Shown: positions 1-56,459, numbered from the stretch's first letter. The stretch: 64,000 nt of DNA from an uncultured cyanobacterium (GCA_963766435.1 CAVXZH010000005.1:265610-329609), one strand, 5' to 3'. Numbers and translations: made by a program. Notes: generated by a model not told the origin, from the letters alone.

Positions 1-181
1 AAGCACCACCAATTGCACCAACTAACGCGGCTTCTCCTACACCTGCCATCAGGTTTTTACCATCAATAATGTTGTTACCCATCTGGATAACTGCACCAGA
101 GGCTGCACCGACTATCGCACCGCCCACAATGGCTCCAATCGCTCCCGCAGCCGCAGTACTAGCACCTAGCGCACCTGCCAT
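1..181 (-). CDS. Gly/Ala-rich glycine-zipper-like membrane protein, N-terminal part only; continues off the window
   Basis: Reverse-strand ATG at 181-179 gives MAGALGASTAAAGAIGAIVGGAIVGAASGAV...; open to the window edge; overlaps the end of the 159-917 ORF. Confidence 0.3.
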   Translation of the reverse strand, partial: MAGALGASTAAAGAIGAIVGGAIVGAASGAVIQMGNNIIDGKNLMAGVGEAALVGAIGGA

Positions 182-917
182 TGCCCCTACTGCACCTATC
201 ACTGCTTGAGCCTGCTACTAGTGCTACTACCACCACTACAGCCACTACTAACAGAATCTTTAAGACGCCCTTCCATCGTGGTTGTTCTTGTCCGGCGGCA
301 TCTTCGGCATATTTACCAATGTCCGCATTCATCTTGGTCAGCGCACCCCTTAAGCCTGTTTCTAATTGGGTGGCGCTGTTACCCATTCCCTGTTCTAAAT
401 TTTGATTAGTTTGGTTAAAGGTGGTTTCGATGCCTTGGGTAACTTGTGCAAAACCAGTAATTGCTGTTTGTGTTGTGGATTGAATTGTACTGGTGTGACC
501 TTGCTGTAATTGACTAAATGTATCAGTGGCACTTTGATTGAGTTGTTGTAAGCTGGTGGTTAATCCTGTCGCCATCGTCTGAGCTTCTTGTTTCCCAGAT
601 TCGCTGATAGTGGTTAAAGAGGTTAATGCTTGTTGTCCTGCTTGAATTAATCCTTGTGCTGCTGTCCCAAGATGAGTTTCTAATTGAGTTTGAACTTGAG
701 CGATTGCCTGATCAATTTGTCCTCCAGCTTGGGCTAAAGAAGTTCCCAAAGCTACAGGATCTGGTGCGGCGATACCTTGCGACTGAGTTTGAAAATTTTG
801 TAAAGCTTCATGTAAACTAGTTGCGGCTTGATTAACCCCTTGTTGTAGTGCTGTAATTACTTGATGACCATTACCTTCAATTGCAGATACTTGTTGTTGA
901 CTATATTCTGTCAACAT
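159..917 (-). CDS. Q/T/A-rich alpha-helical repeat protein with a C-terminal hydrophobic anchor; the frame stays open upstream to ~1256, so it may be a longer protein or continuous with 1252-3129 through a frameshift (tape-measure-like?)
   Basis: Six-frame ORF; I checked that the minus frame is stop-free over 918-1256 and its translation continues in the same Q-rich coiled-coil style. Confidence 0.4.
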   Translation of the reverse strand: MLTEYSQQQVSAIEGNGHQVITALQQGVNQAATSLHEALQNFQTQSQGIAAPDPVALGTSLAQAGGQIDQAIAQVQTQLETHLGTAAQGLIQAGQQALTSLTTISESGKQEAQTMATGLTTSLQQLNQSATDTFSQLQQGHTSTIQSTTQTAITGFAQVTQGIETTFNQTNQNLEQGMGNSATQLETGLRGALTKMNADIGKYAEDAAGQEQPRWKGVLKILLVVAVVVVVALVAGSSSDRCSRGNGRCARC

Positions 918-1251
918 TTGCAGTTGAGACTGTTCTTTTTGCTGTAAAGATTGTAAGTTAGCCTCTAACGTTTGATTAACTGCCTGACTTAAGCTGGTTT
1001 GTGTTTGTTGTATTTGTGAAATCGCTTGTTGTTCAGATGCAGTTAAACTGTCTAAATTACTTTGATGCTGAGTTTGTAAAGTTTCACGGGATTTAGCAGC
1101 TATTTGTCGGGTTGCATCTATATCTTTAGCTTTACCTTCTTGGGCTTTTTGACCCTGTTTATTAGCTTCTTCAATTAAACCTTGTTGATATTGTTTTCCT
1201 ACTTCTCGTGCTGCTTTGGCTCTAGCCTTATTTTTGTTATCAGTTAAAGGT

Positions 1252-3129
1252 TCAATCTAATAGACTGTCATCTTTCCCTGTGATTTGCGATTCATATCCT
1301 GTAGCACTTTTATTCGCAACTGCAATCGCCTCATTACCCACTTTTTCCCCAGCAGCTTGATACTTCGGTAAAGCTTGTTGATACAATTCCTCAATCTTAG
1401 CAATTTGACCAGTTTCTTTTTCAGCTAATCCAGCATTAGCCTTGGTAAATTCCGCTTCTAACTTAGTTTTCGCTGTAGCTGTACTTTGAGAAATTCCTGC
1501 TAAAGCTGTTTGTTGTTGGGTTTGAATTTGAGCTAAAGCGGTTTGAGCTTCTGCTTGAGCTTGAGCACGTAACTGAGTAATGTGAGCCGTTACTGCGGCT
1601 TTTTGTGGTTCTACTGCTGCTAAAACATTGGCTTTAGCACTTTCCGTAGTAGCTAAAATTCTAGCTGGGATATTTTCTCCCAAACCCGTAATTGTTTGTA
1701 CCTTCAGAGCTGCTGAACCTAAAAAAGCACTAGCTTGATTACTAGCAGCAGCTCGTTGTTGTTCTAAGAAAGCTAACTGATTACTTCCTGGTTCGCTTTT
1801 GCGAGAAATTACTGTACTTGCTTGATCTGTTTCCGGGTCTGGTGTACCAAAACTAACTCCGGCTGATGCTAGTTGGGCTACTTGGGTATTAGTAGCTGCT
1901 AGTTCCGACTGTCCTATTTGCGCCTCATTTTTAGATTTTTCTGCGGCTGTTGTTGTATCCTGAGTGGTAGGGTCATTACCTTCTGACTGGCTTTGACTAA
2001 CTTCTTGATTTTGGGTAACAGCTTGTTTTAAAACTTGAGCTTCTGGAACTTGAGTTAATGGTTGATCTGGTGTCTGATTTGCTGTTTTTCCCACCTGTGC
2101 TTTTTGATCAGACGCAGCAGCTTCTGATGGTAACTTGATTTTTTCAGTCAGAGCTTGTTCTTGCGTCTTCTCAGCAATAGGACTGGTTTTGGCAGTATTT
2201 TCTGGTGCTGCGGTATCTTGAGTTTTTGACTGTTGTGGTTGATCAGAAATCTCTACTGATGGATCTGCGGCTGATTTTTCGTTTTTTTCAGACTTTTTAG
2301 AATTTTTTGTGGTTTCGTGGCTTTCTGTTTTTGTTTCTACACTTACGACCGATGATGTTGTTTGTTCTACTTGTTCTTTAGGAATTTCAGTATTTTCTGA
2401 ATTGGGATGATCACTTTCTGTGATTTGTCGAAAGGATTGAATAAGTGGATTAACAGATGTATTTATAGGTTTGACCTGATTCTGTCTTTTTTGTAAGTCT
2501 ATTTGGTGTTGAATAAGTGGATTAACAGATGTATTTATAGGTTTGACCTGATTCTGTCTTTTTTGTAAATCTATTTGGTGTTGAATTAATGGACTGACAT
2601 TGTAGGCTAAAGGTTTTTTCTGAATTGATGCTTCTGATTTCTCATGATCATCGTCTGTTGATGTTGGCATGGACATCACTTTAGATGGCATATTATCTGC
2701 TTCTTGCTCGTATTTATCCCCTGATGTACCAATACTGAGTTTTGTTTGTAAGTGTGTTTTCTCTTCTGCGTCTTGTTTCTGCTCACATTCTGAACAAAGC
2801 CTTTGGATCACACCTGTTGAGGATACATCCAGGTTTTCATGAATAGGTTTTTCTGATTCTCCCTGTCCTGAAAGTGCTAAAATATCCTCCTGTGATGTGT
2901 TCTCTTCCTTCTCTGATTCTTCTGAGCATCCTTCTGATTTGGTCTGAACAACATTCGATGTATCTGAAGTATTCGGTGTTTGGGGAAAATAAGTCTGAGG
3001 CGCTGGGACTAAATTTGACTCTAACTCTTTTGGCAAGTTAAAGGGACGGGAAGTAAATTTACTTTCTTTGGCTGGTTGATAACTGGGCATTTTAAACGAA
3101 TTACTCTTTTTTACACTTTCGTAAACCAT
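1252..3129 (-). CDS. Large low-complexity S/T/E/Q-rich protein with a coiled-coil C-terminus and internal 24-aa tandem repeats
   Basis: 625-aa ORF; C-terminal AQAQAEAQTALAQIQTQQQ heptad-like region; repeat PLIQHQIDLQKRQNQVKPINTSVN x2. Confidence 0.45.
   Translation of the reverse strand: MVYESVKKSNSFKMPSYQPAKESKFTSRPFNLPKELESNLVPAPQTYFPQTPNTSDTSNVVQTKSEGCSEESEKEENTSQEDILALSGQGESEKPIHENLDVSSTGVIQRLCSECEQKQDAEEKTHLQTKLSIGTSGDKYEQEADNMPSKVMSMPTSTDDDHEKSEASIQKKPLAYNVSPLIQHQIDLQKRQNQVKPINTSVNPLIQHQIDLQKRQNQVKPINTSVNPLIQSFRQITESDHPNSENTEIPKEQVEQTTSSVVSVETKTESHETTKNSKKSEKNEKSAADPSVEISDQPQQSKTQDTAAPENTAKTSPIAEKTQEQALTEKIKLPSEAAASDQKAQVGKTANQTPDQPLTQVPEAQVLKQAVTQNQEVSQSQSEGNDPTTQDTTTAAEKSKNEAQIGQSELAATNTQVAQLASAGVSFGTPDPETDQASTVISRKSEPGSNQLAFLEQQRAAASNQASAFLGSAALKVQTITGLGENIPARILATTESAKANVLAAVEPQKAAVTAHITQLRAQAQAEAQTALAQIQTQQQTALAGISQSTATAKTKLEAEFTKANAGLAEKETGQIAKIEELYQQALPKYQAAGEKVGNEAIAVANKSATGYESQITGKDDSLLD
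2437..2600. repeat. 72-bp tandem repeat (2 full + 1 partial unit) inside the CDS
   Basis: ttgaataagtggattaacagatgtatttataggtttgacctgattctgtctttt... repeated at 2437 and 2509, partial at 2581. Confidence 0.8.
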
Positions 3130-3326
3130 GTCCCCGCCTCACTTTAATCTATCAGGTTAAAGATTTTTTGTATACTTTTAGCTAACTTTTCCTACTATAC
3201 ATACTTTAATAAAGTGCTACAATGATATGTAGCAAGCAACTTATTACACCAAATATAAATACTTTAACTTCGTGTATAAACTATTTTAAATAAGCAATAA
3301 TATAAGTATAAGCTGAGAAATACTCA

Positions 3327-3929
3327 TCACCCATTTTGTACCATCCAAACTAACATACTTAAAACTTGCTCTACTGGTGGGAGCGGATAATCAAGTAAAT
3401 CAATAGTCACAATATCACCCTCTAACTTCAAAAAACGCCATTGTGTACCACTGCTAATCGAGCCATAAACAGCCGAAACCGCACGATTTTTGGCAGCATT
3501 AAATCTTTGTGCTGCTACCATCTCTGCAATACATTGCCCAAATCCAGTTCTTAAATCTGCTTTTTTAGCTTCTACAATCACAACTACAGGTGCTTCAATT
3601 TCTAAAACTTCAGGAGAACGACTTAAAACAAAATCGCAGATTCCGTTTAACCCTACAGATTCGTCAACTGTAAAATCTTCACCAGAAAATAAACTAATTT
3701 GCCGATTTAGTATTTTTCTAACTTCTAATAAAACAGGGTAAATGATTCCTTCGGAACGGGCTTTTTCACTAGCTGAAGCAGTTATAGACAGGCTTTCATC
3801 AAGATATGATTTTAATGTAGTAGATGCTTCAATGGGTTCAAGAATCGGGATGAATCGTCCATTTTCTTTGGTTTTTAAGCCGAAAGCTTCTTTAACTTTA
3901 CCAATGCTTGTAAATTGACTATAAGACAT
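3327..3929 (-). CDS. PD-(D/E)xK nuclease-fold protein (HsdR-N-like); paralog of 30283-30912
   Basis: Motif ...GICDFVL...EVLEIEAPVVVIVEAKKA (D...E.K); shared motif pattern with VMIIESKKA protein at 30283. Confidence 0.5.
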   Translation of the reverse strand: MSYSQFTSIGKVKEAFGLKTKENGRFIPILEPIEASTTLKSYLDESLSITASASEKARSEGIIYPVLLEVRKILNRQISLFSGEDFTVDESVGLNGICDFVLSRSPEVLEIEAPVVVIVEAKKADLRTGFGQCIAEMVAAQRFNAAKNRAVSAVYGSISSGTQWRFLKLEGDIVTIDLLDYPLPPVEQVLSMLVWMVQNG

Positions 3930-4009
3930 AATTTATAACTTTTAAGAATTTAGAAACTGAGATGGGAATTGAGCAGGCTAGAAGCCTACTCCACAAGTTC
4001 TATTTTAAC

Positions 4010-6015
<2,006 letters not shown>

Positions 6016-7176: not shown

Positions 7177-8586
7177 ATGATAGAAAGCCAGTATCAGGAC
7201 GTTTTTGATGACTTTATGCCACCAGCATCTACGGATGGCAGTTATTTAGGAACTCAAGCACAAATGAACGCTACACGTCAGCACCTGGAAAAGAAATTTG
7301 ATCAGGAGTTAATAGAAGTTAAAGCCAGGCTGAAAGCAGCCAAAATTAAAGTCGGTTTAATCTTGGCAGGTGGAGCTATTCAGCTACAAGCTTCGCTACC
7401 AATCAAGCCGGGTGATGTTGATACAAAAGGGACTGGGTTTAAGCAATACAAAATCTCTCTCAACATTCCTGCTAATTTAGATGGACTAAAAACGGCTGAA
7501 GAGGAAGCACACGAACTAGGAAAGCTAATAGCCCGTAAACAATTTGAATGGAATGATAAATATTCAGGTAAAATCACCAAACCAGAAAATAAACCTAAAA
7601 CCGTGGGTGAGATACTAGAAGATTTTGAATCTGAATACTTTAAACATCACAAAGTGACAGAAAAGAGTAAACACACCTTCTCTTATTACAAAGGCTTCCT
7701 GATTAGGTTGATTGGTGTTGATACCTACCTAACGCAAGTATGTATAGATGCAAAAATTGCAGAGATGTCCGAATGGTCTAAATATCATGCTGTAAAAACC
7801 CTAAAAGTCTTAAAAGGGACTCTCAAATTGACTAGCTTTAGTTTAGAGGGAATTAAAAGTACACAGCCAGAGTCAAAGATTCGTGATATTCCAAGTGATG
7901 ACGAAGTAATTAAATGCTTTCAATTATTTCATCAATATTCATTGAGTAGAAGATTGACAATCAAAAAGAACTTATTGGATACCTGGAAAATGTGGGAATG
8001 GGTATATGGAATGCTTGCCACCTATGGATTACGTCCAAGAGAGTTATTTGTAAATCCACAAATTGACTGGTGGTTGAATTCTGAAAATAAAGATAATACC
8101 TGGAAAGTTCACCCAGACACAAAAACAGGATACAGAGAGGCTTTACCTCTATATCCTGGCTGGGTAGAATTATTTAATTTAAAAGATAATCAGGAAGCAT
8201 TAGAGCTATTGAAAGCTCAAACTGATGGTAGAACCGCTTTTGCAGATATCAATACCATTAGAGTAAATTGTTCTTCATGGTTTAGACGTGTAAGTGTTCC
8301 CTTTACCCCCTACGATTTACGCCATGCTTGGGCAATTAGAGCGCATTTAATGGGAATTCCTATTAAAGCGGCGGCTGATAATTTAGGACACTCTGTTGAG
8401 ATTCATACTGAGGTTTACCAGAAGTGGTTTAGCTTGGAAAACCGAAAAAAAGCGATTAAGCAAGCAGTAGATAAACGAGATGACGTGGATATCTTGAAGC
8501 TGGAAAACTCCCAGCTAGAAGCTGAGGTTGAACGACTTAGGACGGCATTGGCTAGACAGCAGATTGAGTCATTGTTAAATAAATAA
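7177..8586 (+). CDS. XisA-family recombinase of nifD element 1
   Basis: 469 aa; same conserved motifs as 4010 and 53053 proteins; 70 bp inside the left border. Confidence 0.8.
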   Translation: MIESQYQDVFDDFMPPASTDGSYLGTQAQMNATRQHLEKKFDQELIEVKARLKAAKIKVGLILAGGAIQLQASLPIKPGDVDTKGTGFKQYKISLNIPANLDGLKTAEEEAHELGKLIARKQFEWNDKYSGKITKPENKPKTVGEILEDFESEYFKHHKVTEKSKHTFSYYKGFLIRLIGVDTYLTQVCIDAKIAEMSEWSKYHAVKTLKVLKGTLKLTSFSLEGIKSTQPESKIRDIPSDDEVIKCFQLFHQYSLSRRLTIKKNLLDTWKMWEWVYGMLATYGLRPRELFVNPQIDWWLNSENKDNTWKVHPDTKTGYREALPLYPGWVELFNLKDNQEALELLKAQTDGRTAFADINTIRVNCSSWFRRVSVPFTPYDLRHAWAIRAHLMGIPIKAAADNLGHSVEIHTEVYQKWFSLENRKKAIKQAVDKRDDVDILKLENSQLEAEVERLRTALARQQIESLLNK

Positions 8587-8660
8587 ATCCACTACCGCTA
8601 TCGTGATTCCGGTGTCACGATAGCGGTAATTATTTTGTTCTACTATCCCACTAGTTGAGA

Positions 8661-9122
8661 TTAATTAACTTTTATTTTCTGAACAGCATCCCATTGACGC
8701 TCTTTGGCTTCTTGCATTTCTGCCACCATTTGCTCTATTCTTGCGACTGCTTCTTGCCTATGACCAGGGATTCTAGATGATATAAACTCCGCAAAATAAG
8801 ACGCGCTGCGTGGGTAATATCTATTGTTCCAATCAGCAATAATCTCGATTCTTTGCTCCAATGGAACTGACCGCAGCCAACGCCGCGCTCGTTTCCAGGT
8901 TGCCGCTTCACACTGCCTCCATAAATGAATTTGTTGTTCTCTCCCCGATTGGAAAGCATCTACCCGCTCTTGTGCAGTTGGCTGGGATTCTTTAATCCAG
9001 TCAGCCAACAAGGGGAATTTTTCTTGCTGTTTGATTAGCGTCCGTTCAGATGCTTTGAGCCGTCGTGAGGTCACAGGGCGTGGCGCCCTGGAAGGGGATT
9101 TAGTAAATTTTATTCCAAACAT
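8661..9122 (-). CDS. hypothetical protein (Arg/Trp-rich)
   Basis: 153-aa ORF; no recognisable motif. Confidence 0.35.
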   Translation of the reverse strand: MFGIKFTKSPSRAPRPVTSRRLKASERTLIKQQEKFPLLADWIKESQPTAQERVDAFQSGREQQIHLWRQCEAATWKRARRWLRSVPLEQRIEIIADWNNRYYPRSASYFAEFISSRIPGHRQEAVARIEQMVAEMQEAKERQWDAVQKIKVN

Positions 9123-9128
9123 AAAATC

Positions 9129-10057
9129 CTACTGGGGGACAACTTTCTCAAAATCATCGGTACTGGCAACGCGAATTATTTCACCCTGGGGAGCTTCAAA
9201 TAGAAACATAGTTTGAGTATTTGAGGGGATGTCTTTCAGTTTGCAGTCGTACACCCATTCATAGGACGCGTCCTCATTAATCGGACTATTCGCCAAAACC
9301 CTCACGTTGCATATCGCTCCATCAGCGAGAATTTTTTTCCACTTTTTGTACTGCTTGAATTCCCAGGTAATAATCATTTCTCTAACTATTTTTTTAATGC
9401 TAGTTGGAGAAGTATCTAATAGTTTCTTTGTTGCCACCCCCTGGTTGTTATCTGGGAAATTCAACAAGAGATGCACCTTAAATCCACCTGCCTTGATTCG
9501 CTGATACAGCGTCGCCGTTACTGCTACATTTCCGTAGCTGGTGGGCAAATCCAAAACCAATGGCTTGAATCCCATTGTTTTGCAATAATCATCTAATGGT
9601 GGTGGAGAAAGTTTAATATCTGGTTCACCCTTGGTTTCAGGAGCAAATTCTTTATTAAAGGAACCATAGGGCGCAAAAATTTCCCGGAATTTATCAGGAT
9701 TATTCCCCCAATAAATAAAGCAGTGAGATTGTCTGGCTGGAGATTGTGGTTGATAGTTGGTATCGAGAAACTTAATTCTCCCCTTCCAGAAACAAATTAA
9801 GTTACTGGAGATTAGGGGGTGCAGCCAATTCGTATCCGTGGATGCTGGAACAAGGAGATCGCTTCCGTAACATGAGCAGCTTGTATCTCACTCTGTAATT
9901 TATCTATCCATTTGGAGGGACAGGAATAGGGCGGGTTCATGAATACTCGACCACTCCAAACTTGACTCAAGCCGTCATCAGCTGCGGTGAAGTGGTGGCA
10001 GGACTCAATGTGTTTGCCTTCATCAGCACAAGGGTCAAGAGTTATGCCTCCCAGCAT
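9129..10057 (-). CDS. Phage Dam-type N6-adenine DNA methyltransferase (pfam05869-like), with a 1-nt frameshift near 9858
   Basis: Frame A: DPCADEG...VFMNPPYS...; frame B continues ...LLVPASTDTNWLHPLISS...FWKGRIKF... and runs without stops into the 9129-9575 ORF; the two halves join by restoring one C in a CC(C) run. Confidence 0.55.
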
Positions 10058-13000
10058 TTGGCTGACGAGATTGGCGATATTGTCCGGTGTGTACCAGCAA
10101 TCTGATTTTTTGACAGTAACAGCTTTTTCTTCGGTGGCGTTTTCTCCAGCGGGGGGGATTTCTGGTAAAACTTCAGATTCTGGTAAAACTTCAGATTCTG
10201 GTAAAACTGGCTCAAATCCCCACGAATTAAATTTTCAGCCTCTAAGATTGCGTGACTAATTAGATTTTTTTCCTCTAATTCCCAGTTTCCCCACACCACA
10301 TCGTGTCCGGGGAGCAGAATTTTTACCGTACAAAGCACCTTGGAACCGTTGCGCTGTCCGGCTTTTACCTCAATTTGCACTTGCCCAAATTTAGAGGGAA
10401 TCTCAAAACCAAAATTATTTTCCGTTGAAAAATGATCAACATGATCAACATTTGTCTGTAACCCTTGATGGACAAGCGTTTGAGGGTGTTGATCAGTGAT
10501 CAACAAATGATCAACATGATCAACATTTATTTTTTCAAATTCAGAAAATTCAAATTTTGAATTTTTAAATTCACTTTCAGAAAATGTTGATCGCTGTTGA
10601 TCAATGTTGATCACATGATCAACGCACTCAACGCCATGCCCTGTATGGTTTTGCGGCTCTGTGTTGATCATGTTGATCATTTTTGCAGGAAAGAATTTAT
10701 TTCCCTCTTTAGTTATCGCTCCTTTTTCAACCAGAGTGTGGCAGTTGGCGGTTATTTCAGTGGTGGGGGTAGACCCGAAAGCCCGTCGCTGTAATTGTTT
10801 GATGTCTCTAGCGGTCACACCCTCTGGATGTTTTTCAACGAAATTTTTGATTTTTAAGAAGTCACCCGTAATACCAGCGTCGTTAGTTTTGTACAAAACT
10901 TGCAGCTGAGAAGCGAAAAAATCTATCATCCCACAAGCTACGGTCACAGCTTGGATGTCAATCATCTGGGATGGTGTCTCTCCAGCCAGGACAGCATTAA
11001 TAATGTGTACCCAAAGTGCAAGCCTAGCTAGATATCCCTGTAATTTGGGGTAAGCGACTGCGAGGGTTCGGTGTATGTCCTTGAGTCGTTCCCCCTCATT
11101 AACCAAGAAATTGTAGTGAGTCATAAATATCTTTTTGGCTTCATTGCCTAAGAAATAGTCTCTCGGTGGTAAACACCCGATGTTGTGATAAAGGCTTCTC
11201 AATCTTTTTTCTAATTTCTGTCCCGTGCCGTCATCCTCTTGGAATAGGTCAATATATCCGGGCGTTCCAGGCACTAAACAAAGTAGCCACCTCGCGTACT
11301 CACCTTGTGGGTCTTCAAAATTTTGCCGTGCTAATAAATTAGTGATTGTTTCTGGCTGAGTCGCTCCAGTCCTGGAGATGGCAGAACGATTAAGGAATAA
11401 TCTTTCGGTGGCCGTATCCTTCATGATGGCGTGACCATTGAATTCCGATAACTCAATTTCCAGATCGTTGCCCTTGCCACCGCGATACATGTTTCGACTG
11501 TTTACAAAACCAGACCACTCATCCATGTAGGCTAAGATCCCTCTCGGATTTTCGTGGTGTATTTTTATCCGGGTTTCCGTGGTACATCCCTGAATTACAA
11601 ATCTAGCTCTTGGGGGTGGTTCTTGGGGTGGTTCCTCTCCACTGGTTTTTTTGTAATTGCGAATATCCTCTTTATATCGCTTGTCAAGAGGTTCCCACTT
11701 TTCATATTCCTCTAGTTCCAGTGCAAAAAGTGGCTTGAGGATAACTGTTTGAGCCGGGGTTTTCTTCTCTCCAGTTGGGGCAATCACGCAACTCCAAAAC
11801 ACAGCAGGCTGCGTGTGATTGCCTACGGTATTGACTATGATTTTGGCAGAGGTTCCGATTCTTGAGCCAGCAGCAGGAATCAAAGTAGTGATAAGTCGCT
11901 CCACTGGAGTAGGCATTGAATCAGCGCTGATAGTAAGCAGTTTCGCTAATTCCCCGCCATCTCCATAAAGGATTTCAAATGGATTCAAACGTGCTTGCTG
12001 CGCCTGCATTATTGATGGGATAGTCTTCCCGATCTCTTGGCGTTCTTCTGTATCACGGCGCTCTTTGACTCGTGCTTCGTAAAGTTTGCGAATGTCAGCC
12101 GTTGAATAAGTATCGCTTTTTAGTTCTGGTAGAAATAGCTCAACTTCTGATTTAGGTAAATCTTTGTCTATTAGGGAGTCGAGAATTTTGATTAGAGCCT
12201 GTTTGTGGTCAAGCAATTCGTTTGGTATGATTACCTGTTCTTTGTTCCCTGTTCTTTGTTCCCCCATAATTGGCTCACTACTTTGTTGTCGCTGCCAATG
12301 CTTGATGCAATTTTCTAAAGCATCATCAGTGAGGGTGGCAGTGGGGTTATCTTTTTCTGCTGATTTCCAAATTGCATTAGCTTCTCGGTCGTCGAGAGGT
12401 GGAGAGCAACGATGACAGAAATCATCAAACAGTGTTCTAGGATTGCCGTCAAATCTATGTCCAAGATGAGTCAACCTGATGGCAGTACCAATCAAATTAC
12501 GAGCTAATTTAGCCCCGGCACTATTTCTACCACCCTGGCTTAATCCACTATCAATTAAAGCTCTATCATCTTTAGAAAGGCATCGGTAGAGCGGTACATC
12601 TCCAGTTGGTAAAGGGATAGATGGGGGCGGTAATTGTTGTTTTTTTGGTTGAGGAATTATGGCTCTGAGTTCCTCAAAATTATATTTCTTGCCAGAGTTG
12701 AGGATGATTCTGGAAAGATTGCTGCCAGCACTTGAGAAATGGTAGCAACCAGCCAGCCTCATCACTCTAGATGGGTTCTTTAGGCTTCTATCAGCATCGG
12801 CATATTCTAATAAGTCGGTTTGTAATGCCTTCCAAGAATCAGGGCTAATTCTATCGGTTACCCAATAACTATGAATAGATTTACCACCTGTATCCACTTG
12901 TAGCGTTGGCTCAGGTAGACCGAGGGATTGCCATAAATTTATCTGTAGTTCTTTGTCCAGGTTGTCATGTTCATAAAAGATAGCTCGGCATTCTGTCACA

Positions 13001-13263
13001 GCAGCGTCGGTATGTCCACCGCCGTTAACTACTAGATAGATGCCTCTCTCCTCGGACTGCCATTCACTAGCAGTTTTTATTAGTTGGTCAAGGCTTTTTA
13101 CCTCCTTCTTCCTACCTTTATCACCTTGCCTATCTGGGTTGTCACTAGGTAGGAAGGCACGGAGAAATACGCTATCACCTTTTCTGTAGCCAAGGGCTGA
13201 GAGGTGTTCACCAATAATAGTAGCATCAGGAGAATTAGGGAAAGAATGAATACCTTGTGTCAT
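10042..13263 (-). CDS. Primase-polymerase (prim-pol) N-domain + P-loop/helicase-like replication protein of the element; C-terminal low-complexity VDHVDH/FYQNLK repeats
   Basis: 1073 aa; LVVNGGGH...DTGGKSIHSYWV resembles prim-pol motifs; P-loop-like APTGEKKT; the C-terminus overlaps the iteron/tandem repeat DNA. Confidence 0.45.
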   Translation of the reverse strand: MTQGIHSFPNSPDATIIGEHLSALGYRKGDSVFLRAFLPSDNPDRQGDKGRKKEVKSLDQLIKTASEWQSEERGIYLVVNGGGHTDAAVTECRAIFYEHDNLDKELQINLWQSLGLPEPTLQVDTGGKSIHSYWVTDRISPDSWKALQTDLLEYADADRSLKNPSRVMRLAGCYHFSSAGSNLSRIILNSGKKYNFEELRAIIPQPKKQQLPPPSIPLPTGDVPLYRCLSKDDRALIDSGLSQGGRNSAGAKLARNLIGTAIRLTHLGHRFDGNPRTLFDDFCHRCSPPLDDREANAIWKSAEKDNPTATLTDDALENCIKHWQRQQSSEPIMGEQRTGNKEQVIIPNELLDHKQALIKILDSLIDKDLPKSEVELFLPELKSDTYSTADIRKLYEARVKERRDTEERQEIGKTIPSIMQAQQARLNPFEILYGDGGELAKLLTISADSMPTPVERLITTLIPAAGSRIGTSAKIIVNTVGNHTQPAVFWSCVIAPTGEKKTPAQTVILKPLFALELEEYEKWEPLDKRYKEDIRNYKKTSGEEPPQEPPPRARFVIQGCTTETRIKIHHENPRGILAYMDEWSGFVNSRNMYRGGKGNDLEIELSEFNGHAIMKDTATERLFLNRSAISRTGATQPETITNLLARQNFEDPQGEYARWLLCLVPGTPGYIDLFQEDDGTGQKLEKRLRSLYHNIGCLPPRDYFLGNEAKKIFMTHYNFLVNEGERLKDIHRTLAVAYPKLQGYLARLALWVHIINAVLAGETPSQMIDIQAVTVACGMIDFFASQLQVLYKTNDAGITGDFLKIKNFVEKHPEGVTARDIKQLQRRAFGSTPTTEITANCHTLVEKGAITKEGNKFFPAKMINMINTEPQNHTGHGVECVDHVINIDQQRSTFSESEFKNSKFEFSEFEKINVDHVDHLLITDQHPQTLVHQGLQTNVDHVDHFSTENNFGFEIPSKFGQVQIEVKAGQRNGSKVLCTVKILLPGHDVVWGNWELEEKNLISHAILEAENLIRGDLSQFYQNLKFYQNLKFYQKSPPLEKTPPKKKLLLSKNQIAGTHRTISPISSAKCWEA
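10160..10212. repeat. 18-bp tandem repeat x3 (ttctggtaaaacttcaga)
   Basis: Direct reading; encodes KFYQNL repeats on the minus strand. Confidence 0.8.
10431..10690. repeat. Iteron-like array of ~12 TGATCAAC/GTTGATCA units (GATC-rich), candidate replication origin of element 1
   Basis: 12 GATC sites in ~260 bp (about 1 expected); units atgatcaac / gttgatca in direct and inverted orientation. Confidence 0.55.
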
Positions 13264-13678
13264 GGCTAGTTCTCCCCCTTGATAGATGCTGTACTCAAAG
13301 TAGTTAGGCTATAATCATTAGCAGATTGAATCATTTTTAAAATCCTTATTTTTGATAAGCGAGGAGCGGCTAAAACTCCTCGCTTTTAAATTTGTGGAGC
13401 ATCAAGAAAGGAAGATAAATTGTGTGTCTCCCCGCCATACGTCAAAAGCAAGGTTAGCAGCAATCATTAATTCGATAATGCCCTCTACATCTTGATAGTG
13501 AGCGAATGTATTCTTTAGTCCACCCATAGAAAATCCTTTTTTTTGCTTTTTAAGAAACTTCTGAATTTCTCTGATAGAGATTCCCAGTTTTTGGTATTCT
13601 TCGGTACTCATTAAAATACCTCTGGGACTGCTCCATCCGGGTTTCTAGATTTGCGCTTTGCCTCTGCTTCAAAAGCGT

Positions 13679-13915
13679 CTATTTGATCAGGAAGAAGATT
13701 TCCGAAGCTGCAAAGGCTCGGTCATAAGCTGGTAGTCCACTAGAAGATATGCAGTAGAGTAGTAGGTTTATTTCTGATGCCACATCCAATGAAAAGTGGA
13801 TGTATTCCATGCCTTGGAGGCACAATCTGGCAATAGCTCTTACTCTTTTATATTCGTTAGGTGCTTGCTGTTGGGTGTTCATGATCAGTCCTTTCTTGAA
13901 GTTGTTGCCTGTCAC
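13679..13915 (-). CDS. small hypothetical protein
   Basis: 78-aa ORF in a run of small minus-strand ORFs (13402-14175). Confidence 0.25.
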   Translation of the reverse strand: MTGNNFKKGLIMNTQQQAPNEYKRVRAIARLCLQGMEYIHFSLDVASEINLLLYCISSSGLPAYDRAFAASEIFFLIK

Positions 13916-14294
13916 GCTCTAATGATTACTTTTTCTAGATGCCACTGACGCGATCTCCGGGGATATTTTTTAGAGGCTCCCTCTATAAGTCGCTTCGCCA
14001 GAGCGTCGTTACCGTATAACAGTACGAGTAGTCGCTTTTCCAGTAGTCGCCGCTTCAGTAATCTTGAACGCAGAAAAATGAAACAGACAGGTATCGCCAT
14101 GAGCGTCAGTGTGATGGACGCTGTATTAAGGCGGATGAATTCTGATATCCACCAGGTAAGATAAGAAGTATTCATGAGTAGTGTCTGTAATTACACAAGT
14201 ATCTTAGCGTACCAGAATAGATAGCCAGAATCACGTGAGCGATGCTTATATGATTCTGTTGCTATCAAGCTACAGAATCATATGATGAGCTAGA

Positions 14295-14540
14295 TTACTT
14301 GTCGTCTTTCACTCCTGTTGTATCAATACCAAAACTACCGCATAGCGCCTTGAGGGGAACACCAAGTTCTCGTGCGAGAGAGATCGCTCGGTCAAGCCTG
14401 GGGATTGATACCCCTCTCTCCCAATCGCCAATGATGCGAATACCTACTCCCATCCGTTGGCTTAGTTCTGGCTGAGTCAGCCCCATGGCTTCTCTTAATT
14501 CTTTCAAGGTTGGGATTCCTGAATTTGATGAATTGTTCAT
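14295..14540 (-). CDS. XRE-family helix-turn-helix transcriptional regulator
   Basis: LKELREAMGLTQPELSQRMGVGIRIIGDWERGVSIPRLDRAISLARELGV = Cro/C1 HTH. Confidence 0.6.
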   Translation of the reverse strand: MNNSSNSGIPTLKELREAMGLTQPELSQRMGVGIRIIGDWERGVSIPRLDRAISLARELGVPLKALCGSFGIDTTGVKDDK

Positions 14541-16103: not shown

Positions 16104-16486
16104 TTATCAGCTTCTCTACCACTAATCACCTGGCCGAAGATGCGGGAGTTGATAACCCTCTTTTTCAGGGAATCAAAACAGTTACTCGCAGGCATTGGAC
16201 ACAAAGGTATTTCAATATCATTACCAGTGCCTATGATGAAAACAAAAAAGTGCATCAAGCGTGGGATGCTTTACCTCGCACCAAAGGCAGCAAACAAATC
16301 GGCTGTATCACCTTAACCCGTCGTCCCTACTGGGAGAAATTACAGGATATGCCAGTTGAAGATATTTATCATGAAGGTAATCTTTGGGAATCTAAAGATG
16401 AATTCATTGAAATGCTAAAGCTGGCTCCAGAAACAAAGGTCGTAGTAATTAGGTTTAGCTTTACGCCGGGCGATGAAAATGGCTAA
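16058..16486 (+). CDS. hypothetical protein (possibly ASCH/PUA-like)
   Basis: 142-aa ORF; weak resemblance only. Confidence 0.25.
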   Translation: MFTLYSNPGGNINFMIISFSTTNHLAEDAGVDNPLFQGIKTVTRRHWTQRYFNIITSAYDENKKVHQAWDALPRTKGSKQIGCITLTRRPYWEKLQDMPVEDIYHEGNLWESKDEFIEMLKLAPETKVVVIRFSFTPGDENG

Positions 16487-17396
16487 CCAATCCTCAATAG
16501 AATGGACTGACTTAACATCAAATCCCATCCATCTTGTTCGGGAAGATGGTTCACATGGTGGTCATTGGTGTAGAAAGATATCTGAAGGGTGTACGAATTG
16601 CTATGCAGAGGCTCTTAATCAGAACCGACGCTATAGATTTTCATCTCTCAAAAAATACGAGGGACTGTCACCAGTCAATCTAATCCTAGATACTGAGGTG
16701 ATGAAACAATGGATAACAATGAAAACCCCCAAGAGAATCTTTGTTTCGTCCATGACCGATGTTTTTGGGCAATGGATTTCTGATGAATGGTTAGACGAAA
16801 TATTCGCCTACATGGTGCTTTCTAAAAGTACATTCTTGGTTCTCACTAAAAGAGCAAAAAGGATGCAGCGATATTTTAGAAATCCAGATCGGGGTATTCG
16901 CATTGACTACAGAGCAGGTCAAATTATGCGAACGCGAGGAGTTCTTGACTGGCATAAATCTACACCAATCTCCTGTCCTCTCCCGAATGTTTGGCTAGGG
17001 GTAACAGTAGAAGACCAAGTAACCGCTACTGGGCGAATTCACTGCTTACTAGATACACCAGCTACAGGTAGGTTTCTCAGCTGCGAACCTCTACTCGAAG
17101 AAGTGGATTTGCGGCTCGGACTGTACGCACGAAATCCCGATTGGGTGATTGTTGGGGGTGAAAGTGGCAACAAAGCTAGGACCACCAAGATAGACCACCT
17201 ACTATCTGTGGTTCTTCAATGCCGATTAGAAAATGTTCCCGTATTTACCAAACAACTTGGTAGCCACGCTCTCGCAACCCTTCCACAGCCGTCTGATTAT
17301 GGGTACAGAGAGTTTCAAACCAGCGATCGCAAAGGCGGAATTTTTGAAGAATTCCCACCTGCATTGCAATTTCGTCAGTTCCCTGATTTTTGGTAG
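16473..17396 (+). CDS. Phage Gp37/Gp68 family protein (DUF5131)
   Basis: N-terminal SIEWTDLTSNPIHLV...GGHWCRKISEGCTNCYAE matches the IEWTD..NP...GC..S.GC.NCYA signature. Confidence 0.55.
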   Translation: MKMANQSSIEWTDLTSNPIHLVREDGSHGGHWCRKISEGCTNCYAEALNQNRRYRFSSLKKYEGLSPVNLILDTEVMKQWITMKTPKRIFVSSMTDVFGQWISDEWLDEIFAYMVLSKSTFLVLTKRAKRMQRYFRNPDRGIRIDYRAGQIMRTRGVLDWHKSTPISCPLPNVWLGVTVEDQVTATGRIHCLLDTPATGRFLSCEPLLEEVDLRLGLYARNPDWVIVGGESGNKARTTKIDHLLSVVLQCRLENVPVFTKQLGSHALATLPQPSDYGYREFQTSDRKGGIFEEFPPALQFRQFPDFW

Positions 17397-26618: not shown

Positions 26619-26924
26619 GTGCAATGAACCCGATCCATCTGGTTTTGCGATCGCCACGACATATAAGTAAAAAACCGCGCAGCGCATCTTGAAATATAAG
26701 TTAAGCTAATTAACAGGTTCCCTATGGGATTAAGCGATCGCTAAAGCGATCGCTAAACCAATCAGCTAACGCATTTACAAGGGTTTCAGCCTTCAGAGAT
26801 AGAGGATTTAAGCCAAAAATAAGCATCAGGAAAGATGCGGCGCTAGAACGCTTACGCTGTAATGGTTTCACCTTACTGATATTTATCTACCCTGGTTAGA
26901 GTATAACTTCTTTGGTCGTTACCA

Positions 26925-27366
26925 AGATTGCTGCTTCTTTACGCGAAATCGCTTCTAAGTTTGATGCTAAGATTCAAGCAAATGCTGAGAAAGTAATTGC
27001 TAAGTATCAACCCACAATGGATGCGATCGTTAGCAAGTATCGCCCCCGTTTAGAAGGTAAGACTGTCGCGATGATGGTTGGTGGTCTACGTCCTCGTCAC
27101 GTTGTTCCTGCTTTCCAAGACTTGGGTATGAGAATGATTGGTACTGGTTATGAGTTCGCTCATAATGATGACTACAAACGTACCACTCACTACATTGAAA
27201 ACGGTACCATCGTTTATGATGACGTTACCGCTTATGAATTTGAAGAGTTTGTCAAAGCTCTAAAACCAGATTTAATTGCTTCTGGTGTGAAAGAGAAGTA
27301 CGTATTCCAAAAGATGGGTCTTCCTTTCCGTCAAATGCACTCCTGGGATTACTCCGAACCTAACCA
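26925..27366 (+). CDS. nifD: nifD segment 2 (middle part)
   Basis: [28 protein letters not shown]...[16 protein letters not shown]...[10 protein letters not shown] matches NifD; ends at GGATTACTCCG. Confidence 0.9.
27356..27366. repeat. GGATTACTCCG 11-bp direct repeat (left copy) of nifD element 2
   Basis: Exact copy at 54554-54564; identical to the known Anabaena nifD-element core. Confidence 0.85.
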
Positions 27367-27599
27367 TGTGTGTGAAATTGATTGTAAATCAAGGGTTTTT
27401 AGTGGTGGGAATCCAGAAATTGAATTTATAGACTAAATATAATTGGTTATGTTTTATAATAACATTGTTTGTTGGTAACTGCAAATAATAGAACTCTGAT
27501 TGCTACTGCTGTGGACAGGTTTATTAAAATTTCATGAATAGTAAAGCTGTTAAATACGATATCTTTTTTATAGAAAATTCTTTAGACTAAAATTCATAA

Positions 27600-53052: not shown

Positions 53053-54387
53053 TTATCTGATTTTACCATATTCTGTATCCAAAATATGATTCTGTTGATA
53101 AATTATTTCCATTCTCAATTTCTCCATCTCTAACTTCAATCGCTCATTCTCAATTTTCAATGTAGCATTTTCATCCTTAATCACCTCAACCTCATTCCGC
53201 TTGCTCAAAGCCTGATTAATCGCTAGTTTTCGCATATCTAAGGAAAACCAACGTTGATAAGTTTGTGTATGCACCTGTACACTATGCCCTAAATTATCTG
53301 CTGCTGCTTTGATGGGAATTCCTAAAATATGTGCTCTAATTGCCCAAGCATGACGTAAATCATAGGGTTTGAAATCTAATCCAATTTTTCTAAACCACCA
53401 ACTTACTCGTTGGGTTAGTGCGGTTATTTCAGCATGATTAGTATTATCTTTTTTATTAACTGCTGTGATTAACATTTCTACATATTTGGGATTACTTAAA
53501 TCAAATTCTTCAATCCATTGTTTATATAATGGTAAAGCTTGTCTTTCTCCAGTTTTACAATCTTTATGAACTTTCCAGGTTAAATCTACATTTTCTTTAC
53601 TTAACCACCAATCAATATCAGGATTAATGAAAAGTTCTCTTGGTCGTAATCCAAAAACTGCTAACATTCCATAAGTCCAGCGCCAAAGTTGCCAGCTATC
53701 TTTCACTTCTTGGTTTACTTGTTTGCCTCGATTATTTAAATAATCTTCAAATTTGATGATTCCGGCAATTATTTCCCCATCTGTGGGAATTTTCCGAGAA
53801 TTATTCTCAGGCATTTTCGCATATTTAGATAAATCAATCTCAATTTTAAAGGTCTGACAAAATGCAGCAATAGCTCTAGCAGCATTATATTTAGACCATT
53901 CTTTATCAATTTTTTCAATTGAATTAATCAGATTTTCGGCAGTTGCTAATTCTTCGGGATTAGTAAAACGCTTGGTACGAGAAAAGTAATAAAAAAATGT
54001 ATGTTCACTTTTAGTAGTACGCTGATGGGTTTTAAAATATTCTGTGGCAAATTCTGCCAATAACTCTCCCATAGTTTTAATATCTTTTTTAATAACTTCT
54101 TTACTTAAATATTTATCATTCCAGACAAAAGTTTTCCGGGCAATTAACTTTCCCAATTCATAAGCTTCTTCTTCAGCAGTTTTCAATCCGTCTAAGTTAG
54201 CAGGAATATTTAAACTCAGATTATATTGTTTTCTCCCAGTTCCATTGGTATCTTTATCTTCTGGTTTAATTGGTAACGTTGCACGTAGTTGCAGACTTCC
54301 ATTGGATTCTCGAATTGTGACTTTTGTTTTCGCAGATTTCAAACGGAGATTCACTTGTTCTAATTCCGTTGTTAATTTTGTTGTCAT
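53053..54387 (-). CDS. xisA: XisA site-specific recombinase of nifD element 2
   Basis: 444 aa with the same conserved motifs; at the nifK-proximal border of an element bounded by GGATTACTCCG. Confidence 0.85.
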   Translation of the reverse strand: MTTKLTTELEQVNLRLKSAKTKVTIRESNGSLQLRATLPIKPEDKDTNGTGRKQYNLSLNIPANLDGLKTAEEEAYELGKLIARKTFVWNDKYLSKEVIKKDIKTMGELLAEFATEYFKTHQRTTKSEHTFFYYFSRTKRFTNPEELATAENLINSIEKIDKEWSKYNAARAIAAFCQTFKIEIDLSKYAKMPENNSRKIPTDGEIIAGIIKFEDYLNNRGKQVNQEVKDSWQLWRWTYGMLAVFGLRPRELFINPDIDWWLSKENVDLTWKVHKDCKTGERQALPLYKQWIEEFDLSNPKYVEMLITAVNKKDNTNHAEITALTQRVSWWFRKIGLDFKPYDLRHAWAIRAHILGIPIKAAADNLGHSVQVHTQTYQRWFSLDMRKLAINQALSKRNEVEVIKDENATLKIENERLKLEMEKLRMEIIYQQNHILDTEYGKIR

Positions 54388-54553
54388 ACAGTATCTGTGT
54401 AGCTATGTGAATATTTCTCTAATTTCCTGCTCCCTGCTGCCTTCTACCTTACATTTATTCTCAAAATAAATATGTTATTAACAAACAATGTTTAGGGCTG
54501 ACATTGATTATTATAAACATTAATTTATCGAAAATTAGTCAATGATTAATCAG

Positions 54554-54564
54554 GATTACTCCGG
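54554..54564. repeat. GGATTACTCCG direct repeat (right copy)
   Basis: Exact match to 27356-27366. Confidence 0.85.
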
Positions 54565-54703
54565 CCCTTATCACGGTTACGACGGATTTGCTATCTTCGC
54601 TCGTGATATGGATTTAGCTCTTAACAGTCCCACCTGGGGATTAATCGGCGCTCCCTGGAATAAAACTGCTAAGGCTAAAGCTACAGCTAAAGCTAAAGTG
54701 TAG
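54565..54703 (+). CDS. nifD: nifD segment 3 (C-terminal 46 codons)
   Basis: [46 protein letters not shown]; segments 937+442+139 = 1518 nt = 506 codons in frame. Confidence 0.9.
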
Positions 54704-54924: not shown

Positions 54925-56459
54925 ATGCCTCAGAATCCTGAAAAAATTCAAGACCACGTTGAGTTATTCCACCAACCAGAATATCAACAGCTTTTTGAAA
55001 ACAAGAAGCAGTTTGAAAATGGTCATAACCCTGAAGAAGTACAACGGGTTGCAGAATCAGACGAAGTCTTGGGAATATCGTGAAAAGAACTTTGCTCGTG
55101 AAGCTTTAACCGTTAACCCTGCTAAAGGTTGTCAACCTTTAGGTGCAATCTTTGCTGCGGTTGGTTTTGAAGGTACTCTACCTTTTGTTCAAGGTTCTCA
55201 AGGTTGCGTGGCTTACTTCCGTACCCACTTAACCCGTCACTATAAAGAACCATTCTCTGGTGTATCTTCTTCTATGACTGAAGATGCAGCGGTGTTTGGT
55301 GGACTGCAAAACATGATTGATGGCTTGGCTAACTCTTATACTCTGTACAAGCCCAAGATGATTGCTGTCTGCACAACTTGCATGGCTGAAGTAATTGGAG
55401 ATGACTTACAAGCGTTCATCAACAATGCTAAGAATGCTGGTTCTGTTCCTCAAGATTTCCCAGTTCCTTACGCTCACACTCCTAGCTTCGTTGGTTCCCA
55501 CATCACTGGTTACGACAACATGATGAAGGGTATTCTTCACACCTTAACCGCAGGTAAGAAGAAGCCCACCAGCAATGGCAAAATTAACTTTATCCCTGGT
55601 TTTGATACCTATGTTGGTAACAACCGGGAAATCAAGCGGATTGCTTCTTTGTTCGGCTTTGATTACACAATTCTAGCTGACAATAGCGATTACTTGGATT
55701 CACCTAACACTGGTGAGTTTGATATGTACCCAGGTGGTACCAAGTTGGAAGATGCAGCAGATGCAATTAACGGTAAAGCTACTGTGGTTCTGCAAGCACA
55801 CTCCACTCCTAAAACCCGTGAGTACATTGCTAAGGAATGGCAACAACCTGTTGTAGTTTCTCGTCCTTGGGGTATTAAGGCTACTGATGAATTCTTGATG
55901 CAACTCAGTGAATTAACAGGTATCGCCATTCCTGAAGAATTGGAAATTGAACGTGGTCGTGCCGTTGATGCCATGACTGACTCTCATTCCTGGGTTCATG
56001 GTAAGCGCTTCGCTATCTACGGTGAACCAGATTTAGTTTACAGCATGGTTGGTTTCATGTTGGAATTGGGTGCTGAACCTGTACACATTTTGGTTCACAA
56101 CTCTAACGAAGTATTTGAGACAGAACTCAAAGCATTGTTAGCTTCTAGCCCCTTCGGTAAGATGCAACTATCTGGGGTGGTAAGGACTTATGGCACATGC
56201 GTTCCTTACTGTTTACTGAACCTGTTGACTTGTTGATTGGTAACACTTACGGTAAGTACCTGTGGCGTGATACTAAGACACCTTTGGTAAGAATTGGTTA
56301 TCCTATCATGGACGCCACCACTTACACCGCTATTCTACTATCGGTTATCAAGGTGTGATCAACTTGCTCAACTGGATTGTAAATACAATCTTCGATGACA
56401 TCGATCATAACACCAATATTCCTTCCAAGACCGATATTTCTTACGACTTGATCCGTTAA
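54925..56459 (+). CDS. nifK: nifK (MoFe protein beta) with three apparent single-base frameshifts (~55057, ~56160, ~56313)
   Basis: ATG 54925 [28 protein letters not shown]... switches frame to [27 protein letters not shown]...; later ...[28 protein letters not shown].../[23 protein letters not shown]... each in a new frame. Confidence 0.85.

Follow-up and report, generated by a model that had tools for sequence, protein, structure and literature searches.

Why does a DNA element that interrupts a nitrogenase gene carry, just inside its boundary, a large replication-type gene whose 3′ part is filled with short repeats? The question is raised by element 1 of nifD in a window of 64,000 nucleotides from an uncultured cyanobacterium (GCA_963766435.1 CAVXZH010000005.1:265610-329609; the window is this whole stretch, and positions are counted from its first letter). 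For the region 9129-13263, an earlier note made from the sequence had proposed a replication module controlled by methylation, composed of a Dam-type methyltransferase, a prim-pol/helicase-like protein and an array of GATC iterons. Our own reading, to which we would give a probability of about 0.7, is that element 1 carries a plasmid-type replication module, in which an initiator combining PrimPol, DUF3987 and winged-helix domains has its origin inside its own gene. An iteron origin placed in the initiator gene is a known kind of arrangement; its recognition here as a replication module is well supported, control of that module by methylation is not.

An initiator gene with a repeat array inside

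The initiator gene, here named rep, occupies positions 10042-13263 on the minus strand as an open reading frame (ORF) that is free of stops across 3.2 kb and encodes 1073 amino acids. Its prim-pol/helicase character, already suspected, is confirmed by matches to an AEP domain of known structure, to DUF3987 and to helicase and primase families of PHROG. The AEP primase-polymerase domain (residues ~20-205; 12649-13206, minus strand) was delimited by alignment to that of the cyanophage S-2L PrimPol. Residues 73-203 match the structure of the latter (PDB 6zp9) with an E-value of 4.8e-25, the identity to the S-2L gene is 38.5% (tblastn), and the motif blocks AIFxExD, TGGKSIHxYWV and NPSRVMRLAGC are common to both proteins. 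Homology to a characterised AEP domain together with conserved catalytic motifs thus places Rep among the AEP primase-polymerases. The profile PF09250 (Prim-Pol), one of those suggested for a check, gave no match on Rep at E ≤ 0.01 in Pfam; several homologues have a precomputed match to it. The second of the suggested profiles fared better: DUF3987 (PF13148; residues 452-792; 10888-11910, minus strand) was found at 112.6 bits against a cut-off of 27 (E 3e-32), over profile positions 2-363 of 364, and is the only Pfam domain found on Rep. The family phrog_2373 ('DNA helicase') matches the same region (E 1.5e-15), for which a putative ATPase/helicase activity can be proposed from sequence. Toprim, D5_N and TIGR01613 gave no match on Rep in Pfam and NCBIfam, so that it does not belong to the P4 alpha/D5 type; it shares the domain order of P4 alpha and probably has a similar role. 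Identity with the cyanobacterial CyRepA proteins was also considered and rejected, since the domains differ, Rep having DUF3987 alone by Pfam and no DUF3854/DEXDc (CyRepA architecture from PMC10079941).

Downstream of DUF3987, an AlphaFold2 model of residues 730-1073, built with 35 homologues, predicts a winged-helix domain at residues 800-859 (10687-10866, minus strand) with three helices, a beta-hairpin and a predicted local distance difference test score (pLDDT) above 90. Foldseek relates it to the DNA-binding domains of Fur, PerR, Zur and MotA with a probability of ~1 and weak E-values (4e-3 to 0.2), which makes it a candidate for the domain that binds the iterons. Against PDB, Foldseek returned generic winged-helix domains and not the origin-binding domain of P4 alpha specifically. 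Residues 864-948 are predicted to be disordered, residues 950-1028 to form a small alpha/beta domain, and the remaining tail to be disordered again. The order of domains in Rep is therefore AEP PrimPol, a helical region, DUF3987, winged helix, an iteron-encoded disordered linker, the small alpha/beta domain and the tail.

The iteron array, a putative origin, lies inside rep directly after the winged helix (10432-10680) and consists of 12 units of 9 bp with the core TGATCAAC. The estimate of about 12 GATC repeats at the 3′ end of rep was accurate: 12 GATC stand between 10434 and 10678, that is within 245 bp, for which the background outside the array (~1.5 per kb) predicts ~0.4. This density is well above a background that is itself low, GATC being under-represented in the whole window (106 against 216 ± 14 expected from shuffles). 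The 8-mer TGATCAAC occurs 15 times on the two strands, against 2.8 ± 1.6 expected and a number reached in none of 100 shuffles; 11 of the 15 fall in the array, whose twelfth unit is the variant GTTGATCG.

With A for GATCAAC and B for its complement, the array reads, in gene orientation, AA - 49 - BAAA - (61 bp, 85% AT) - BBBA - 48 - BB. It is an almost perfect dyad of two opposed sets of six units, and its outer arms (10428-10450 and 10662-10684) are complementary at 100% over 23 nt. The idea of an iteron origin is upheld by this anatomy and by the comparative evidence given below, with the amendment that the units form a dyad around a 61-bp spacer and not direct repeats alone. The spacer (10525-10585, 85% A+T) is a candidate DNA-unwinding element; the GC content falls to a minimum of 16.7% at 10520-10579, compared with roughly 40-50% in the flanks. 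Three features expected of an iteron origin are present: a short motif repeated at about one helical turn, an AT-rich neighbouring region, and an initiator in cis whose motif co-varies with the lineage. DnaA boxes are absent from the 64-kb window, and a promoter scan gave promoter-like sites no more frequently than in shuffles. An 18-bp tandem repeat had also been reported in three copies. It is present at 10160-10208 in 2.7 copies that are 100% identical, and reads PESEVL (linker-like) in the methylase frame described below and QNLKFY in the rep frame; there is no evidence that ties it to the origin.

From P4 alpha, the Rep protein of the Staphylococcus aureus pathogenicity islands (SaPI) and viral initiators with a superfamily 3 (SF3) helicase, we infer by analogy how binding, melting and priming might proceed. 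The winged-helix domains of Rep molecules would bind the two iteron sets in opposite orientation, so that a pair of helicase assemblies would be loaded head-to-head over the AT-rich spacer and the latter would melt. The PrimPol domain would then prime synthesis independently of DnaA and DnaG. The iterons would be selected as DNA and tolerated by the protein because they are translated as a disordered linker; indeed, the predicted disordered stretch (residues 864-948, nt 10420-10674) coincides with the array. In such a scheme, GATC would be part of the recognition sequence of one subclade, which the host would methylate.

The array in relatives

Rep has 993 homologues, nearly all cyanobacterial. 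The comparison with cyanobacterial plasmid rep regions that had been advised proved informative, as the family is found on 60 cyanobacterial plasmids (PLSDB) and three of its array-bearing genes are plasmid-borne: on pANA03 (20 kb), on Calothrix Cal7716_p5 and on pOSC7112.05 (7.6 kb). On such small plasmids, the family gene is the sole replication-like gene; pOSC7112.05 has further repeat clusters outside the intragenic array. The set used for comparison comprised 42 genomic loci and two plasmids, and the nearest rep locus among the GTDB representatives scanned is 56% identical. The homologue with the top identity (61%; P0004, on a JGI metagenome contig) counts 782 amino acids, ends about where DUF3987 ends and has no array; it may be truncated or frameshifted.

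Among 23 full-length family genes, 15 have a 7-mer that occurs 8 times or more within 600 bp. Measured along the gene, these clusters begin at a relative position of 0.71-0.87, and codon-shuffled genes never contained more than 5 copies. In the 12 arrays that could be oriented, the units stand mostly in two opposed blocks. All homologues of 1000-1200 amino acids read through the equivalent array and have further domains after it. The long ORF through the repeats, which had been suspected to be partly artefactual, is therefore genuine and conserved. The intragenic array emerges as a feature of the family as a whole, apparently undescribed. In a distant subfamily (L008, L009, L010 and L013; Nostoc FACHB-280, Komarekiella), the motif ACTGTCACC / TGGTGACA is found in two small clusters instead of the single large array seen elsewhere: one, ~1.0-1.1 kb from the gene start, falls between the part for the primase and that for DUF3987, and the other is at ~2.75 kb.

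The motif itself changes with the lineage. It is GATCAACA in this window, in Nostoc NIES-4103 and in N. linckia z4, and GATCATCA in N. linckia NIES-25. Further away it becomes CCACCAAC in L002 (Tolypothrix), TGGCGACA in L004 (Richelia), GGCCGACA in L007, TGCTGACA in L012 (a Calothrix plasmid) and L014 (a Microcoleus), CGCCGACA in L015, ATGATGAC in L042 (Nodularia), GGTCAACA in L043 (plasmid pANA03 of Anabaena sp. 90) and the 7-mer GTCCACA in L044 (pOSC7112.05). The motifs of these other lineages, which also include GGCGACA and GCTGACA, do not contain GATC, a sequence that belongs to the motif of the closest subclade only. Position by position, the array of the window can be aligned with those of NIES-4103 and the two N. 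linckia strains, to which it is positionally orthologous. Between z4 and NIES-25, the same A/T change (GATCAACA versus GATCATCA) is seen in nearly all of the ~17 aligned copies, direct and inverted alike, in an alignment read by eye, and protein identity falls to 50-54% across the array versus 80-95% elsewhere. Selection on sites that have to match one DNA-binding domain would produce this pattern. A search for specificity-determining residues, made between the three GATCAACA lineages and the GATCATCA lineage, yielded 26 scattered candidate positions with no clear cluster.

The methylase sequence and competing explanations

On the same strand, the end of rep is overlapped by a Dam-family methylase sequence, of which the homology was rightly recognised but whose gene, in the assembly, is not intact and is distributed over two frames. 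The first (9815-10234, minus strand), in the -1 frame relative to rep, encodes a linker followed by KKSDCWYTP, DPCAD and NPPY. Its 81-amino-acid ORF at 9812-10057 belongs to PF05869 (35 bits against a cut-off of 28.1) and contains NPPY, but the frame is open only from 10234 and has no ATG, GTG or TTG before KKSDCWYTP. The second (9132-9887, minus strand) is reached by another -1 shift, across a 1-nt deletion near 9857, and encodes the rest of the methylase (~9650-9887) and then a C-terminal domain (9132-9620); what had been listed as a 148-amino-acid ORF at 9129-9575 is the end of this longer frame. Once corrected for the frame, the methylase scores 64.7 bits with TIGR01712 (phage N6A methylase), below the equivalog cut-off of 97.05. 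With multidomain PF05869 proteins of cyanobacteria, which are 250-630 amino acids long, it shares up to 72% identity. None of 114 methylase homologues is a fusion with Rep or exceeds 628 amino acids, and the nearest one whose context was looked up (P0123) is a stand-alone gene that does not lie beside rep.

The C-terminal domain, formed by the last 163 codons, recurs C-terminally in P0246 (another type of primase-helicase, 1044 amino acids) and in the primase-helicases P0001/P0002, partly in the Rep tails of N. linckia, and in short proteins of 146-204 amino acids and one of 297. The simplest history is that a methylase cassette was inserted later between the body of Rep and a C-terminal domain of Rep type. 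Residues 950-1028 of Rep were considered as a partial copy of this domain, but its hidden Markov model did not match them.

The breaks are not confined to the module: single-base frame breaks are also present in well-conserved coding sequence of nifD (one, at 26905-26920) and nifK (two, at 55050-55065 and 56150-56165), where they are either indel errors of the assembly or the sign of freshly inactivated nif genes; the trust that any frameshift in the window deserves depends on which of the two applies. The breaks in the methylase region may for this reason be assembly errors as well. In the tail of rep (10105-10160, minus strand), a C7 run (CCCCCCC) and GAAGAAAAAG stand just upstream of the WYTP motif of the methylase. 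With a -1 shift at one or the other, rep would continue into the methylase frame; these sites could be prone to slippage or be the places where assembly indels arise. If the two breaks of the module were errors, 9129-13263 would be one gene of ~1,378 amino acids, with PrimPol, DUF3987, winged helix, iteron linker, methylase and C-terminal domain in succession, that is, a self-methylating initiator which marks its own GATC cores and lets the excised circle replicate as a plasmid. We hold this for a very doubtful proposal. Were it true, nif interruption elements would be domesticated integrative plasmids still able to leave the chromosome.

Several related Dam-family methylase genes of cyanobacteria contain short translated DNA repeats of their own. 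In L045 (2730-3075 and 160-370), the 5′ part of the gene has four copies of TTCCTCTAAGAA, three direct and one inverted, and a further three lie at a distance of 2.4 kb; VLMVNSTVST is repeated in P0126 and LLGDIENSPS in P0134, and P0231 belongs to the same set. Arrays of binding sites inside genes may be common in the mobile elements of cyanobacteria.

A number of observations weigh against an active replicon with its origin in rep. The Walker-A-like motif of DUF3987 (APTGEKKT) is non-canonical by inspection of the sequence, and the winged helix comes from structure prediction, with E-values in Foldseek that are weak. In the assembly, the 3′ part of the module is broken, and Rep may be without its ancestral C-terminal domain. 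By the k-mer test, 8 of the 23 family genes have no dense array, and the searchable literature yielded no description of this Rep family or its arrays and no assay on any member. Furthermore, replication would bring no obvious benefit in heterocysts, which do not divide, and in Anabaena PCC 7120 the excised 11-kb nifD circle, from an element of a different type, was reportedly not amplified in these cells. In favour of an active module stand the uninterrupted rep ORF, the conserved PrimPol motifs, 11 of 12 perfect iteron cores and the perfect dyad arms. The same facts bear on the possibility that Rep and its iterons no longer initiate and are what an integrated element, plasmid or satellite-like, has left in nifD as a fossil, element 1 being a passenger excised by XisA in heterocysts. 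Such a relic would fit with a methylase and a C-terminal domain that are out of frame as assembled, with the separation of the Rep-type C-terminal domain from the Rep body, with the absence of vertical benefit from replication in heterocysts and with the inheritance of elements of this insertion type in several genera (PMC4874684). However, iteron cores and complementary arms are what neutral decay would blur first, a 3.2-kb frame has remained open around conserved motifs, and the breaks, which nifD and nifK have too, may reflect the assembly rather than decay. We therefore regard a relic as possible, though on balance unlikely.

The remaining alternatives concern the array. It could consist of binding sites for Rep or a partner that serve another role (control of copy number or incompatibility by handcuffing, partition, autoregulation of rep), with the origin elsewhere. 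Plasmid iterons often serve both control and initiation (review PMC4980987), and the subfamily L008-L010/L013 has its small motif clusters at two positions in the gene; yet a dyad centred on a spacer of 85% AT is how sites for helicase loading are classically laid out, and pOSC7112.05, of only 7.6 kb, has its intragenic array at the same relative position, which is not decisive given the other repeat clusters there. An exclusively non-initiating role thus seems improbable to us. We consider slightly less probable still the control by methylation proposed in the earlier note, according to which the Dam of the element would methylate the GATC cores, and their full, hemi- or absent methylation would gate Rep binding or firing as in E. 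coli oriC/SeqA or P1 oriR. All 12 iterons contain GATC in a window otherwise depleted of it, and a Dam-family sequence with the catalytic motif NPPY immediately follows rep on its strand, with the two not separated by any strong terminator. Nevertheless, no Dam homologue was found in the flanks (up to 8 kb on each side) of rep in the loci of 43 relatives, including three with GATC iterons, and the iterons of most lineages have no GATC. The methylase is interrupted as described and scores below the TIGR01712 cut-off, its GATC specificity, which family membership does not establish, is putative, and its homologue P0123 stands alone. The host in any case already has DmtA, an essential enzyme that methylates GATC in nearly all cyanobacteria (PMC4390886), because of which the iterons are probably methylated in vivo; that hemimethylation after fork passage could affect re-initiation is speculation. 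Least credible of all is a purely protein-level repeat, a low-complexity coding region devoid of function in DNA. In its favour, translation covers the region, and the frame is open there in every array-bearing homologue; but the units are found in both orientations and use each of the three reading frames (giving MIN, VIN, IDQ, RST, VDH, LIT and TDQ), which makes the repeat a unit of DNA and not of peptide. The distance between adjacent units, 7-11 bp, is mostly not a multiple of 3, the same base change has affected inverted and direct copies between strains, and the peptide is predicted to be disordered.

The nif setting and comparison with known systems

The replicon that we propose is lodged in a nif cluster in which nifD is found in three pieces (6164-~7068, ~26890-27367 and 54554-54658). 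Element 1 measures ~19.8 kb, is inserted ~900 nt into nifD and has the 7-bp TACCCTG at both junctions. With a split nifD, a tyrosine recombinase at the element's end and a short direct repeat at the junctions, it is an interruption of XisA type, and it matches the 'position 895' nifD variant with xis at the element start described by Hilton et al. (PMC4874684). The recombinase gene (7177-8586, plus strand; a 469-amino-acid ORF with a weak Phage_integrase match) adjoins the broken nifD at the start of the element. It is separated from the genes of the rep strand by a strong, bidirectional terminator-like hairpin (8591-8630) whose stem of 15-16 bp has a T-run after it on either strand. The last ORF of the rep strand before this terminator (8661-9122, minus strand; 153 amino acids) is unassigned in function, with no family match in Pfam, NCBIfam and PHROG and no homologue in the related loci.

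Upstream of rep and on the same strand (region 13402-14540), a Cro/CI-type HTH_3 (helix-turn-helix) protein at 14295-14540 is accompanied by small ORFs, one of which (13679-13915, 78 amino acids) is 42% identical to its counterpart in Nostoc NIES-4103, which lies immediately upstream of rep there (L003, 7549-7749). Together, these genes may form a regulatory module of the replicon. Element 1 also encodes a DUF5131 protein (16473-17396; PF07505, E 5e-58), and most of its other ORFs have no family match. Element 2 of nifD (~27 kb) has the classic 11-bp GGATTACTCCG at both junctions (27346-27356 and 54553-54563) and its recombinase at 53053-54387 on the minus strand; its cargo includes a CorA transporter, a T2SSE-type ATPase, an SPFH/Band-7 protein, an AAA_15/AAA_21 ATPase and an IS605-family OrfB (TnpB-like) gene. 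In the window part 1-6015, nifH is apparently truncated at its 5′ end, a NifH-like frame being open only from ~5392, and the ORF directly upstream (4010-5437, minus strand) is the third for an XisA-like tyrosine recombinase, a sign that nifH may be split by one more interruption element, which would extend beyond the start of the window. Finally, nifE (57343-58455) is possibly short, with 370 amino acids.

As to where nif interruption elements come from, these results point, for at least one class of them, to an ancestor that was a plasmid or satellite-like, and they lead to the prediction that the excised circle of nifD element 1 may replicate. As low-level excision of such nif elements has been measured in vegetative cells of Anabaena cylindrica (bioRxiv 10.1101/629832), a replicating circle could persist or spread there. 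In addition, comparison alone has pointed to a probable origin for the PrimPol + DUF3987 Rep proteins, a family with a wide distribution on plasmids of cyanobacteria. This would be useful for shuttle vectors in filamentous cyanobacteria, where few replicons are known. Besides, an in-gene dyad that is translated as a disordered linker offers the case of one sequence under constraint at both the DNA and the protein level, and the only close pair that was compared, N. linckia z4 and NIES-25, shows concerted evolution of the array.

Among known systems, a similar setting is that of the 'primase P4' gene reported inside the 5′-nifD element of A. cylindrica PCC 7122 (bioRxiv 10.1101/629832) and also listed for Anabaena PCC 7108 (PMC4874684), a replication-type gene in a position 895 element with xis at its start. 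To call a replication gene unusual for nif elements is accordingly too strong. Unlike rep, these genes are known by annotation with no origin described, and the name 'P4' suggests that they maybe encode a D5-type protein. CyRepA1 and CyRepA2 are likewise large multidomain Reps of primase/helicase type, shown by experiment to act on cyanobacterial plasmids (PMC10079941, PMC9978351), but they are a different family, combining DUF3854 (Toprim-like) and DEXDc in place of PrimPol and DUF3987, and no iteron array has been described for them. The fusion of an AEP prim-pol to a helicase in one plasmid Rep is shared with ORF904 of pRN1 and other PrimPol-helicase initiators (PMC2777425, PMC4234260), though ORF904 has an SF3 helicase, its origin is a stem-loop region downstream of the gene and its host is archaeal. 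The primase-helicase operon of the staphylococcal cassette chromosome SCCmec provides another integrated element that encodes its own helicase-type initiator (PMC7581432). SaPI elements do so too, and their two iteron sets around an AT-rich region, used after excision, recall the present array. In SaPI the origin nevertheless lies just 3′ of rep and not inside it, and firing is induced by a helper phage; in both SaPI and SCCmec, primase and helicase are separate proteins of different families from those found here.

In overall design, Rep resembles the alpha protein of the satellite phage P4, an integrative element in which one polypeptide also unites primase, helicase and a C-terminal winged-helix origin-binding domain, and in which an 8-bp iteron (type I, in ori and crr) is present in direct and inverted copies and replication is independent of DnaA. 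The building blocks differ, alpha having a Toprim primase and a D5/SF3 helicase instead of an AEP PrimPol and DUF3987, and ori and crr lie outside the alpha gene. For the position of the array, a counterpart is the O gene of phage lambda. Rep has no sequence relation to O (no Phage_rep_O match), which brings no primase or helicase of its own and recruits the host DnaB through P, and the four direct 19-bp repeats of ori-lambda have their AT-rich region to one side, with no dyad around it. Yet the lambda iterons too lie inside the initiator ORF, where they are translated as a flexible segment between domains, and among the relatives of lambda, as among those of rep, iteron sequence and initiator specificity diverge together.

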